Shown here: positions 1 to 1,617 of the stretch, in pieces | How positions within the stretch are numbered: the stretch's first letter is position 1 | How the letters are laid out: each line of letters starts with the position of its first letter | Origin: Naegleria gruberi | Lineage: Eukaryota | Length of the DNA: 1,617 bases | Assembly: GCA_000004985.1 (NCBI GenBank) | Contig: GG739370.1 | Direction: 5' to 3' (one strand) | The notes under the pieces: generated by a model | What the model was told of the DNA's origin: nothing | Database searches by the model: none | Seen by the model: the letters and a program-made list of their open reading frames with translations, nothing else | Position numbers and translations under genes: made by a program

Positions 1-328
1 CGTTTTGGAAGATAGTCTTTGCTGTTTCAAACTTCTCATTGAATAACATATAAAATCCTTGAAATTTGTTAAAGTACACAGAATATTTCTTCAACTCATT
101 ACTGGATTCTCCTTCTTTTACATTGAAAACTCCCTTATTACCAAACATGGTGTTGAACACATTCTTAATGTATAGCTCTGTATTATTCATGTCTTTAGAT
201 TCCATTTTGAGAATTTCTTCAAACTTGTCCTCGTTTGTTGCTAAGTGTTGGAAAAAGTTCAACACGAAAAATTCCTTTGGTTTTTCCTTTCTTTCCTTTG
301 TCAAAATCTTCTTTGTATTCGAAACATA
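1..328 (-). other. C-terminal extension beyond the kinase domain, at least 109 aa, continuing past the window edge. No recognisable domain.
   Basis: Same reading frame as the kinase. The translation is YVSNTKKILTKERKEKPKEFFVLNFFQHLATNEDKFEEILKMESKDMNNTELYIKNVFNTMFGNKGVFNVKEGESSNELKKYSVYFNKFQGFYMLFNEKFETAKTIFQN... It starts Lys/Glu-rich and then becomes Phe/Asn-rich. No stop occurs before position 1. Confidence 0.6.
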
Positions 329-1234
329 AAAGTAAAATTGAGCAAGTATTTCCTCCATAATTGCAACAGAAGGAATCCTCTTTGCATGATTCTGAAAACA
401 GGACCACAAGTATGGGACCATATAGCTATTCCTCAATCTTTTCTGATACAAACCATCTGTTACAACTTGATTCTCTTCATCAGTTCCATATAAATGTATT
501 CTTAATTGGTGAGGTTGCAATAGACGAAACGTGGTTGTTAAATCACCAGTTATCATTTGATAAATAATAGCTCCCAACTCCCAAACATCATAAGTTTCAC
601 TATACAATTCAGGTGGAGAAGTAACTTGACCTCCAGACGACAAGTCAATATCACCATCACACATTTTTGGCGGACCACTGTGCATTCTCTCAAAATCTGC
701 CAAAACAATTTTGAGAATTCCCTTTTCCTTATCAAATTCCTCTACTAATAGGTTTGCAAGTGAAATATCTCGATGGATGATTTTCTTTGTTTCGAGGAAA
801 ACAAGAGTATTGGTCAGTTGATAGGCAACCATAAAGATCAGATCCGTTGGAAGACATGTCTCTTCACTGGCAGTCTCATTTTGCAAGACTAGTTGTTCTA
901 AATCACTGAAATATTTTGGCATTTCAATAATCAAGTATTTTTCATAAGGTATTACCTTGTTGATTTTTACAATATTTGGATGATTAATATCTTTTACAAT
1001 TTTAGCAGCTTCATATTCCTTTTCGAACTCTGCTAGTACTTCTGGATCGAGATTTTCAACCATTCGAATTACAACTTTCTCTTTGGAATTGAGGTCTTTA
1101 AGAATTTCAGCCTCAAAGAGAGTTATTTTTATGGTGTTTCTTTCGCCTCTATCAGTTAATTTCTTTGGGGAGGAATAACCCAAAGACTTGAGAAGCTTTG
1201 TCGCTTTGCATTCTTTGGTTTCACTTTCTAACAT
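1..1234 (-). CDS. Eukaryotic-type (Hanks/ePK-fold) protein kinase-like protein. 5' end complete (ATG 1234..1232). 3' end truncated by the window edge, with no stop codon before position 1. Divergent catalytic motifs, possibly a pseudokinase.
   Basis: Manual translation of the minus strand, with codon high-ends at 1234, 1231, ... down to 4..2. The frame holds 411 codons with no stop. An in-frame TAA lies upstream at 1261..1259, so ATG 1234..1232 is the first start. The product begins MLESETKECKATKLLKSLGYSSPKKLTDRGERNTIKITLFEAEILKDLNSKEKVVIRMVENLDPEVLAEFEKEYEAAKIVKDINHPNIVKINKVIPYEKYLIIEMPKYFSDLEQLVLQNETASEETCLPTDLIFMVAYQLTNTLVFLETKKIIHRDISLANLLVEEFDKEKGILKIVLADFERMHSGPPKMCDGDIDLSSGGQVTSPPELYSETYDVWELGAIIYQMITGDLTTTFRLLQPHQLRIHLYGTDEENQVVTDGLYQKRLRNSYMVPYLWSCFQNHAKRIPSVAIMEEILAQFYFYVSN... 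The kinase subdomain landmarks are in canonical order and spacing: HPNIV (982..968), HRDISLAN (775..752), DFE (697..689), SPPE (619..608), DVWELG (589..572), and KRIPSVAIMEEILAQFYF (382..329). A 411-codon open frame in roughly 30% GC DNA is very unlikely by chance. The supplied ORF track misses it, apparently because no stop lies inside the window. Confidence 0.85.
   Translation of the reverse strand, partial: MLESETKECKATKLLKSLGYSSPKKLTDRGERNTIKITLFEAEILKDLNSKEKVVIRMVENLDPEVLAEFEKEYEAAKIVKDINHPNIVKINKVIPYEKYLIIEMPKYFSDLEQLVLQNETASEETCLPTDLIFMVAYQLTNTLVFLETKKIIHRDISLANLLVEEFDKEKGILKIVLADFERMHSGPPKMCDGDIDLSSGGQVTSPPELYSETYDVWELGAIIYQMITGDLTTTFRLLQPHQLRIHLYGTDEENQVVTDGLYQKRLRNSYMVPYLWSCFQNHAKRIPSVAIMEEILAQFYFYVSNTKKILTKERKEKPKEFFVLNFFQHLATNEDKFEEILKMESKDMNNTELYIKNVFNTMFGNKGVFNVKEGESSNELKKYSVYFNKFQGFYMLFNEKFETAKTIFQN
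329..1190 (-). other. Protein kinase catalytic-domain region of the CDS above, roughly residues 15-302 of the window-encoded protein.
   Basis: The region runs from a degenerate Gly-loop-like LGYSSP (about 1183..1166) to the C-terminal KRIP...FYF motif of the kinase fold, ending at 331..329. The residues in between carry ePK subdomain landmarks III through XI: an alphaC-like EFEKEYEAAK, HPNIV, hinge LIIEM, HRD...N, DF(E), (P)PE, D.WELG, and the subdomain XI Arg in KRIP. Confidence 0.75.
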
Positions 1235-1309
1235 TTTTTCTAATAGCTTGTTAGAAACTTATTACAATCTACAAGTTTAAATAGGTTATTATTCATCTCT
1301 TAAAAGACG

Positions 1310-1318
1310 TTTATAAAA
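1310..1318 (-). promoter_or_regulatory. TATA-like element (TTTATAAAA, which reads TATAAA on both strands) about 76-85 bp upstream of the kinase ATG. The start codon sits in an A-rich context (AGAAAAAATGT).
   Basis: Plus-strand tttataaaa lies at 1310-1318, and the minus strand reads TATAAA at 1315..1310. The start context, read on the minus strand, is caagctattagaaaaaATGTTA, with A at -3 and A-rich -1..-6. This is typical of AT-rich eukaryotes such as yeasts and protists. I see no Shine-Dalgarno-like GGAGG. Confidence 0.3.
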
Positions 1319-1361
1319 TATCTCATATTTAAAAGTTTAGAGATTATTGTAAAAGTTATTC

Positions 1362-1583
1362 ATGTTTTCCAATTCTAATTCAAAACTGTCAAATTATTTT
1401 CATTTGAAATATTTTTGTAAACGTGATTTCTATCTCTTGATGTTTTGCACAAATCACGTTGTCGAGATAACAGAATTTCTTCTTCATCATAAATTGCTAT
1501 CAATTAATCCAGCATCAGAGTCTTTGATTGCTTCCAAAAAAAATAGTCTGGAAAAATTCTTCCACTTAAAAATAGACATTTAA
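1362..1583 (+). CDS. Hypothetical small ORF (73 aa), divergent from the kinase gene. Weak evidence; probably non-coding.
   Basis: From the supplied track: MFSNSNSKLSNYFHLKYFCKRDFYLLMFCTNHVVEITEFLLHHKLLSINPASESLIASKKNSLEKFFHLKIDI. GC rises locally to about 32% over 1441-1560, against about 20% in the adjacent flank. The TAA stop at 1581-1583 is followed by aaaaaataaaataaaaaaaa, which contains AATAAA. The protein has no recognisable motif and is partly low-complexity. It overlaps the inverted repeat. Confidence 0.15.
   Translation: MFSNSNSKLSNYFHLKYFCKRDFYLLMFCTNHVVEITEFLLHHKLLSINPASESLIASKKNSLEKFFHLKIDI
1420..1460. repeat. Perfect 10-bp inverted repeat, AACGTGATTT (1420-1429) and AAATCACGTT (1451-1460), separated by a 21-nt spacer. 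A candidate palindromic regulatory site or hairpin in the 5' flank of the kinase gene.
   Basis: Direct read: 1420-1429 is aacgtgattt, and the reverse complement of 1451-1460 (aaatcacgtt) is aacgtgattt. The match does not extend on either side. Each arm carries an ACGT/CACGT core of the bZIP/bHLH (E-box/G-box) type. The repeat lies about 190-225 bp upstream of the ATG at 1234. Confidence 0.55.
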
Positions 1584-1617
1584 TTAAAAAATAAAATAAA
1601 AAAAATGCAGCTAGCAC

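Follow-up and report, generated by a model that had tools for sequence, protein, structure and literature searches.

An end-truncated gene of Naegleria gruberi coding for a kinase-like protein with altered catalytic motifs, a predicted pseudokinase

A gene of the protein kinase superfamily with substitutions at several catalytic landmarks almost certainly occupies bases 2 to 1234 of the minus strand of the analysed DNA, which is an entire unplaced contig of Naegleria gruberi with a length of 1617 bp (hereafter referred to as the window). The gene is nuclear and intronless, and the contig carries the first 411 of its approximately 465 codons, the remainder being lost at the contig end. The reading that best explains the observations as a whole, with a probability of roughly 0.6, is that this truncated but real gene codes for a kinase-like domain and a C-terminal helical tail, and that its product may serve as a pseudokinase docking or allosteric module.

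Translation of window bases 1–1234 confirmed the statement of an earlier note, made from the sequence alone, that the minus-strand frame starting at the ATG at 1234..1232 contains 411 stop-free codons up to the window edge. The same frame is open from base 1258 to the edge (419 codons), and Met1 is the first ATG past the upstream stop (Table 1). With a stop probability per codon of 0.084 at the composition of the window, 411 consecutive open codons have a probability of ~2e-16, and in 2000 shuffles the longest open stretch had a mean of 76.5 and a maximum of 171 codons. The G + C content by codon position is 42/26/33% in the coding sequence, compared to 23.5% in the intergenic region. That the frame is open merely by chance in AT-rich DNA, with no gene behind it, can practically be dismissed, since nothing but the missing in-window stop speaks for it, whereas the open-frame statistics, the significant Pfam and PDB kinase matches described below and the alignment of the N. 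gruberi paralog NAEGRDRAFT_67864 (P0161) over residues 70–465 with an E-value of 4e-63 all argue against it.

The absence of the gene from the mechanical ORF list on which the earlier note drew was also borne out: the list omits ORFs that run off an end, as this one does at the window edge. The ORFs that the list does contain in this region had rightly been regarded as shadows of the gene, those at 66–329, 245–493, 361–567 and 557–748 on the plus strand being antisense and those at 219–407 (offset 2) and 553–735 (offset 1) on the minus strand being out of frame; with 60–87 amino acids they are near the mean longest open stretch in the AT-rich shuffles. Other wording of the note applies in part. 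The gene is the sole substantial one but not the only real gene in the window, as a divergent neighbour gene begins at its opposite end; it is missing from the mechanical list, but already present in GenBank and RefSeq as a predicted protein of partial length, for which Pfam kinase domains were precomputed in the search database; the leftward extension proposed in the note would run past the end of the contig, all of which the window covers; and to call the gene large is generous for a full protein of about 465 amino acids. The practical consequence is that the only substantial gene of the contig stayed hidden because the ORF list drops ORFs that run off an edge, although public annotation covers that gene.

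Table 1. Coordinates of features in the 1617-bp window of N. gruberi
Feature	Position	Strand	Basis or remark
Partial CDS, 411 codons	2..1234	-	5' end complete, 3' end truncated; of codon 412 only the first base (base 1) is present
Upstream in-frame stop TAA	1259..1261	-	8 codons before Met1; bounds the ORF start
Protein kinase-like domain, approximately residues 13–300	335..1198	-	Pfam and PDB matches; family alignment through Arg286
Pfam Pkinase match proper, residues 49–232	539–1090	-	Pfam
Glycine-rich loop position, LGYSSPK instead of GxGxxG	1163..1183	-	CDK2/PKA and family alignments
Arg57 codon CGA, in the VAIK (beta3) lysine column	1064..1066	-	MAFFT alignment and phmmer column mapping
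Catalytic loop HRDISLAN	752..775	-	His154, Arg155, Asp156 and Asn161 kept
D180-F181-E182 in place of DFG	689..697	-	Metal-binding Asp kept, Gly replaced by Glu182; DFE invariant in the Naegleria family
SPPE (APE equivalent, residues 206–209) followed by DVWELG (subdomain IX, residues 216–221)	572..619	-	Alignment
KRIPS with subdomain-XI Arg286	368..382	-	Family alignment
Helical tail, residues 301–411 of about 465	2..334	-	Homologous to the NAEGRDRAFT_67864 tail; TPR-like character only suggested
Residues 372–411, 40 codons absent from the NCBI model	2..121	-	Aligns to paralog P0161
Intergenic region, 370 bp, 23.5% GC	1235..1604	.	Between two divergently transcribed genes
Start of neighbour gene, first 13 bases ATG CAG CTA GCA C (MQLA)	1605..1617	+	420-aa ORF in L001

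The gene is not new, but has already been deposited as XP_002668061.1 (EFC35317.1; "predicted protein, partial [Naegleria gruberi]"), whose 371 amino acids are 100% identical to residues 1–371 and begin at the same start codon. This model ends at window base 122, whereas another 40 codons of open frame follow before the edge. A metagenome contig (L001), which at the DNA level is 96.3% identical to the window over its full length, contains the full gene of 465 codons, with the stop codon located 54 codons beyond the end of the N. gruberi contig, and the 465-aa ortholog encoded there (P0010) aligns collinearly with the 411 residues throughout. On the minus strand, the bases just past the end of the NCBI model read GTAAAAG and look like a splice donor site. 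The end of the model implies an intron from base 121 onwards, but this was rejected because the frame stays open, running through another 94 codons in L001 (chance probability 2.6e-4), and because the stretch is homologous to P0161. The model XP_002668061.1 appears to end prematurely, by 40 codons. Two small corrections of the public record follow, one concerning the end of this model and the other the C-terminus, for which the metagenome contig supplies the further 54 codons and the stop.

Comparison with L001 also bears on the less favourable reading that this copy is a non-functional, decaying duplicate or an allelic fragment on a tiny contig, whose frame is open merely for lack of time. 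The contig of just 1617 bp would fit such a fragment, and the dN/dS ratio of 0.44 relative to L001 is not significantly below 1 (p=0.097), with substitution divergence outside a rearranged block being the same in coding (1.4%) and intergenic (1.5%) sequence (p=0.79). Intergenic divergence at first seemed higher than coding divergence (p=1.6e-5), but this was rejected as the product of a forced alignment of the rearranged block, the rates outside the block being equal. However, the 465-codon ORF is intact in this independent lineage, and no indels were found in 1233 aligned coding bases, whereas the 370-bp intergenic region has three indel events (Fisher p=0.012). The missing coding indels are weak support for constraint, to which the substitutions add nothing. 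Further points against decay are that the gene has kept every structural and C-lobe catalytic residue that is invariant in the family, that the protein collection contained no other copy within 90% identity, leaving this gene as the sole N. gruberi representative, and that the gene lies in a normal syntenic setting, next to a divergent neighbour whose start context is intact. Taken together, a decaying copy is improbable.

The affiliation of the 411-aa translation with the protein kinases, for which the earlier note had proposed an HMM search, is supported by both Pfam profiles concerned, each scoring above its gathering cut-off: Pkinase (PF00069) with 53.8 bits versus 31.7, covering only profile positions 22–195 of 263, and PK_Tyr_Ser-Thr (PF07714) with 50 bits versus 23.1. 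In the PDB, 1018 kinase chains were matched at E<=0.01, with CDK2 as the best (2.4e-11) and CDK2 and MARK3 chains at ~2e-11 to 6e-11. Together with ciliate CDPK-like kinases, these were the best matches among solved structures and database proteins, extending from alphaC to subdomain IX. We infer a bilobal kinase fold from these similarities. An AlphaFold2 model calculated from a nine-sequence alignment was too poor for a fold search (mean pLDDT 41.7, pTM 0.35). The product has HPNIV, HRD..N, D-F, PE and DxWxxG in common with the canonical Ser/Thr kinases, to which it is ~23–33% identical over ~37% of its length, and its matches assign it to no particular kinase group. In contrast, the GxGxxG loop, the VAIK lysine, the HRDxK lysine and the DFG glycine carried by these canonical enzymes are all altered in the Naegleria protein, and their alphaC glutamate possibly so.

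The state of each motif was determined by alignment with CDK2, PKA and the CDPK-like matches and by column mapping of 255 kinase-domain matches. At the glycine-rich loop only the first glycine aligns, which is not kept in the Naegleria relative P0016, and a 16-residue insertion follows. The beta3 lysine column holds Arg57, and arginine is also found there in P0010, P0016, P0018 and P0029, and in every family member whose alignment covers the column. For the alphaC glutamate, canonical spacing from HPNIV leads to Ala76, with Glu73 and Glu75 nearby, and one alignment places Glu73 at the position itself. In the catalytic loop the lysine of HRDxK is replaced by Ser158, and Ala160 means that no basic residue occupies the tyrosine kinase-type position either. 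The spacer between SPPE and DVWELG comprises 6 residues, as opposed to 11–12 in PKA and CDK2. The C-lobe residues that are kept, namely the HRD Asp156, Asn161, the DFx Asp180, the PPE glutamate, Asp216 and Arg286, occur in this order. Thus the earlier note, which had seen the full ordered set of eukaryotic protein kinase subdomain landmarks, was right about the order, but four to five of the landmarks are substituted.

In the column mapping, the combination of arginine in the VAIK column with serine, glutamate or threonine in the HRDxK lysine column was found only in the query, its ortholog, P0016, P0018 and P0029. DFE accompanies this signature in all of them except P0029, whose alignment ends before the DFG column. 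All signature-bearing relatives are from Naegleria, and the gene product belongs to a small group that was seen in this analysis only in this genus. The three relatives P0161, NAEGRDRAFT_70853 (P0016) and FDP41_008846 of N. fowleri (P0018) share the VAIK-column arginine, HRDx[S/T/E]LxN and DFE as well as an "LWSC(F/L)Q...R...ME" region in subdomain XI, although they are only 27–36% identical; at this level of identity HRD..N and D-F-E are invariant among the Naegleria family members. In the databases these three proteins are uncharacterised and annotated merely as "predicted" or "hypothetical", and a literature search found no paper that mentions these Naegleria loci. A search of proteins with a family profile recovered generic kinases only and missed the members of the family itself, and thus says nothing on family size. 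One group member comes from the pathogen N. fowleri.

On sequence grounds, the most probable functional consequence would be a reduction or loss of catalysis. Exchange of the beta3 lysine for arginine is the classic kinase-dead substitution, and the gene product is somewhat likely to be catalytically impaired. By sequence, a pseudokinase is a protein in which at least one of the VAIK lysine, the HRD aspartate and the DFG aspartate is absent (PMC13519141). Since the VAIK lysine is missing, the gene product falls under this definition, and it does so through Arg57, with the HRD and DFG aspartates being retained; it is therefore probably a pseudokinase in the sense of the definition, for which residual or atypical activity is possible. 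With the beta3 lysine lost, little or no phosphotransfer activity would be most likely, and the protein could function as a regulated docking or allosteric module whose kinase fold and helical, possibly TPR-like tail would bind partner proteins. Asp156, Asn161 and Asp180, the residues responsible for catalysis and metal binding, are invariant throughout the family; this counts against simple decay of the active site and would still permit nucleotide binding or catalysis of an atypical kind.

Two groups of known proteins resemble the Naegleria protein in part. KSR1/2 share with it the beta3 Lys-to-Arg exchange at retained HRD and DFx aspartates and may provide an analogy for its mode of action; in KSR2, in which VAIK has become VAIR, ATP and Mg are still bound and activity is low at most (PMC13519141). 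Unlike the Naegleria protein, however, KSR keeps the glycine-rich loop and DFG. Neither a specific sequence relationship nor a common domain architecture was found, and the Naegleria protein is not a member of the KSR family. The plant BSKs (brassinosteroid-signalling kinases) have a kinase-like domain followed by C-terminal TPR, an architecture that the Naegleria protein, with its possibly TPR-like tail, may share. BSK3, with a kinase domain and TPR, has been proposed to be a scaffold of doubtful catalysis (PMC6336344). BSKs differ from the Naegleria protein by retaining the beta3 lysine, which is the residue (K86) that was mutated in the BSK3 study.

The same retained residues can also be read in favour of a catalytically active atypical kinase, in which Arg57 or a relocated lysine (e.g., Lys24 or Lys25 in the beta1-beta2 loop) would position ATP as in WNK, and Glu182 of DFE could help to organise the site as in POMK. 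We regard such activity as possible, but as clearly the less likely outcome. It would explain why no family member departs from HRD Asp156, Asn161 and DFx Asp180 at such low identity. Moreover, in the CDK2/PKA alignment the column of the third G-loop glycine is occupied by Lys24, which P0016 shares, and this is exactly the position at which the WNK lysine sits. Both a relocated lysine and an acidic residue in place of the DFG glycine have precedents, as WNK kinases compensate for the missing beta3 lysine and as the acidic residue of POMK at the DFG-glycine position pairs with a relocated lysine (PMC13519141). However, Lys24 is replaced by methionine in P0018 from N. fowleri and lacks a counterpart in P0161, and the N-terminal alignment is uncertain because of the 16-residue insertion. 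An active enzyme would also have to dispense with the catalytic-loop lysine, which is missing with no arginine at the tyrosine kinase-type position, and with the glycine-rich loop, in addition to carrying an arginine in the beta3 column that classically makes a kinase dead.

Going beyond the pseudokinase reading of the single gene, the Naegleria group might tentatively be viewed as a conserved, undescribed class of kinase-fold signalling proteins in which the ATP-anchoring triad has been replaced as a set while the C-lobe residues are under selection, an idea that we consider doubtful at present. The triad in this sense consists of the G-loop, the beta3 lysine and the alphaC glutamate, and the replacements are Arg57, the remodelled beta1-beta2 loop and DFE. 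If true, this would imply either a pseudokinase scaffold that senses nucleotides and is coupled to TPR-type tails, or a kinase that positions ATP in a novel manner. The conserved Lys-to-Arg/DFE variant is of modest interest for pseudokinase specialists and possibly for N. fowleri biology; alone it bears on no open question.

C-terminal extensions differ among the Naegleria relatives: P0018 has a long canonical TPR array (TPR_1, 223 bits; TPR_BSK1_C, 45.2 bits versus a cut-off of 42.2), P0161 has a longer tail with TPR matches below the threshold (22.6 versus 24.4 bits), and P0016 has no tail. The tail of the gene product itself is similar to that of P0161 (BLASTP, E=2e-13). When searched alone it matched no Pfam family, and its comparison with the TPR region of P0018 gave a BLASTP E-value of 0.52 and an hhalign probability of 13%. 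From these comparisons the tail is possibly TPR-like.

Upstream of the gene, the region between the two divergently transcribed genes presumably contains both promoters. A plus-strand ORF at 1362–1583 (73 aa) was rejected as a gene, as it had no significant Pfam match and is broken in L001. A tRNA search of the window yielded none, and the sole Rfam match in the window, SNORA18, was far below the threshold (25 versus 70 bits). Repeats in the window are short and at chance level, except for a single intergenic inverted repeat of 10 nt.

The minus-strand frame starting at the ATG 1234..1232 remains open for 411 codons on translation of bases 1–1234, down to base 2, where it runs out of the window. 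An in-frame TAA at 1259–1261 lies upstream of Met1, with no ATG between the two. At the window's composition of 31.7% G + C, the per-codon stop probability is 0.084 and the probability of 411 open codons approximately 2e-16. Over 2000 shuffles, the longest six-frame open stretch had a mean of 76.5 codons and a maximum of 171. The open frame described in the earlier note is thus upheld, as is its absence from the mechanical ORF list, which lacks it because ORFs running off an end are left out. The overlapping ORFs that had been regarded as shadows of the gene are indeed each antisense, or on the same strand and out of frame, and their lengths of 60–87 aa are near the mean of the shuffles. The gene is nevertheless not unannotated but missing from the ORF track only. 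A search of 5.8 billion proteins found one essentially identical protein (NCBI XP_002668061.1 / EFC35317.1, “predicted protein, partial [Naegleria gruberi]”), seen on a single 1617 bp contig of the same extent as the window and carrying precomputed Pfam kinase domains in the search database. The deposited protein (371 residues) matches residues 1–371 of the window protein with 100% identity from the starting methionine on, which means that the public record already holds the gene. Because the contig ends with the window, the leftward extension suggested in the earlier note is not possible in that assembly. This is a real, ordinary, annotated gene, left off the ORF list by a tool artefact.

Sequence comparison indicates that XP_002668061.1 probably ends too early, 40 codons before the contig edge and 94 before the true stop, which is seen in the 4550-bp metagenome contig L001. 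The entire window aligns with L001 1723–3320 at 96.3% identity. The protein encoded there, P0010 (465 aa), is the second member of the 90%-identity cluster of the deposited protein; it is collinear with the window protein along the full 411 residues, differs from it at 11 amino acids, and reaches the stop after a further 54 codons. Window base 122 is the last one in the NCBI model; the minus-strand bases after it, GTAAAAG, are donor-like and were probably taken for a splice donor by the gene predictor. The extra 40 codons are considered coding because the frame is open in L001, for 94 codons beyond the model end (chance probability 2.6e-4), and because of homology to the N. gruberi paralog P0161, to which the omitted stretch aligns (tail alone, E = 2e-13; full-length alignment over residues 70–465, E = 4e-63). 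The corrected gene extent is of modest added value.

Features in the window and in the related metagenome contig L001
Feature	Position	Strand	Remarks
Codons omitted by the NCBI model	2–121	-	40 codons; open frame; homologous to paralog NAEGRDRAFT_67864
Intergenic region	1235–1604		23.5% GC
Start of divergently transcribed neighbour	1605–1617; L001 473–1735 (-)	+	ATGCAGCTAGCAC, MQLA
Rejected ORF	1362–1583	+	73 aa, ATG
Rearranged block	1442–1485		approximately 44 bp
Inverted repeat	1420–1429 / 1451–1460		AACGTGATTT / AAATCACGTT, perfect, 10 nt, 21-nt spacer
A-runs at start codons	1232–1242; 1597–1607		TAGAAAAAATG; TAAAAAAAATG
ORF downstream of kinase-like gene	L001 3664–4158	+	164 aa, no Pfam match

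By sequence, the window protein is a member of the protein-kinase superfamily, as the earlier note had proposed. It matched Pfam Pkinase with 53.8 bits (cut-off 31.7) and PK_Tyr_Ser-Thr with 50 bits (cut-off 23.1), and 1018 kinase chains in the PDB at E ≤ 0.01, the best being CDK2 (2.4e-11), followed by MARK3. The Pkinase match was limited to profile positions 22–195 of 263. Motif states were read from an alignment with CDK2, PKA, and eight CDPK-like matches, of which the CDK2 segment also appears in the PDB match, and from a second mapping in which phmmer placed 255 kinase-domain matches on the query columns. Of the full ordered set of kinase landmarks claimed before, one part is present, namely His154-Arg155-Asp156, Asn161, Asp180-Phe181, the PPE Glu209, Asp216/Trp218/Gly221, and Arg286. 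The set is incomplete: in place of GxGxxG the protein has LGYSSPK, with a 16-residue insertion after it; Arg57 occupies the VAIK lysine column, Ser158 the HRDxK lysine column, and Glu182 the DFG glycine position. The position of the tyrosine kinase-type arginine is Ala160, so that no arginine is found there either. At the canonical spacing the alphaC glutamate is Ala76, with Glu73 and Glu75 close by, and one alignment picks Glu73.

An exhaustive HMMER scan over 1.84 billion cluster representatives returned 3797 matches at E ≤ 1e-3 and 28 at E ≤ 1e-10; besides the window protein itself none exceeded approximately 37% identity, and none aligned past approximately residue 309. Among the matches listed, the Arg57-type and Ser158-type substitutions occurred together only in the window protein and its ortholog P0010, in N. 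gruberi NAEGRDRAFT_70853 (P0016; 325 aa, lacking the tail), in N. fowleri FDP41_008846 (P0018; 856 aa, with a strong TPR array, TPR_1 223 bits), and in N. gruberi NAEGRDRAFT_67864 (P0161, 658 aa, with sub-threshold TPR matches, and P0029, a 159-aa fragment ending before the DFG position). DFE accompanied them wherever the alignment covers that column, and HRD..L.N and D-F-E are invariant in the family alignments at 27–36% identity. These sequences place the gene in a small set of kinase-like proteins with the Arg-beta3 / DFE variant, seen in this analysis in Naegleria alone and probably pseudokinases; recognising its place there adds modestly to the existing record. A profile search to enlarge the family did not return even the family's own members and says nothing on family size, and a search of a literature library found no paper mentioning any of these Naegleria loci. 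The next-best HMMER matches (P0011, P0012) were very long metagenome proteins with 5–10 tandem degenerate kinase-like domains (one example has 2911 aa and 10 matched stretches), many of them without HRD or DFG residues; they do not bear on the present result.

A pseudokinase is defined by sequence as lacking at least one of the VAIK lysine, the HRD aspartate, and the DFG aspartate (PMC13519141), and the window protein is predicted to be one because Arg57 replaces the VAIK lysine. The missing glycine-rich loop and catalytic-loop lysine point in the same direction. The same lysine-to-arginine change (VAIK to VAIR) occurs in KSR2, which retains both HRD and DFG, binds ATP and Mg, and has at most low activity (PMC13519141). 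In plant BSKs, for which a scaffold role has been proposed, the kinase-like domain is joined by a TPR domain at the C-terminal end (PMC6336344). The best inference, drawn from sequence and these analogies, is that the window protein would have little if any phosphotransfer activity and would serve as a docking or allosteric module built on a kinase fold. That it is instead an atypical active kinase is the main rival and appears rather unlikely. All family members retain Asp156, Asn161, and Asp180, WNK and POMK provide precedents for relocation of the ATP-anchoring lysine and for an acidic residue in place of the DFG glycine (PMC13519141), and Lys24 sits in the third G-loop glycine column of the CDK2/PKA alignment; Lys24, however, is shared by neither P0018 nor P0161. 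An AlphaFold2 model (pLDDT 41.7) was too poor to inform the active-site question. The predicted pseudokinase and P0161 have clearly homologous C-terminal tails. That of the window protein had no Pfam match, and comparison with the TPRs of P0018 yielded E = 0.52 by BLASTP and 13% probability by hhalign; it is at most possibly TPR-like.

Both lineages compared, the window and L001, carry an intact ORF; between them, 1233 coding bases contain no indels and 370 intergenic bases three events (Fisher p = 0.012). Evidence from substitutions is weak (dN/dS 0.44, p = 0.097), and coding (1.4%) and intergenic (1.5%) divergence are equal when the rearranged block is excluded. That this copy is a decaying duplicate is thought very improbable.

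The kinase-like gene is not, as had been claimed, the sole gene to reach into the window, since a divergently transcribed neighbour starts at the window's right end. This 420-aa ORF, complete in L001, has only sub-threshold matches, to Rad51 (Pfam 16.1 bits, cut-off 22) and to RAD51 homolog 4 (RAD51D-like; PDB, E = 0.4); it holds a Walker-A-like stretch, ‘GNEGQGITQ’, without the lysine. The plus-strand ORF between the two genes can very probably be dismissed as a gene: no Pfam match was significant, and L001 interrupts the frame, leaving at most 41 open codons in a row. A tRNA search of the window found none, and no credible Rfam family was detected. The rearranged intergenic block is replaced or deleted in L001, with two 4-bp indels flanking it further out, and overlaps the inverted repeat, of which L001 keeps one arm only; it may represent a variable promoter element or a small insertion. 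Both divergent start codons are preceded by near-identical A-runs, which the repeat finder reported as an inverted repeat and which would fit a common A-rich context of start codons in N. gruberi.
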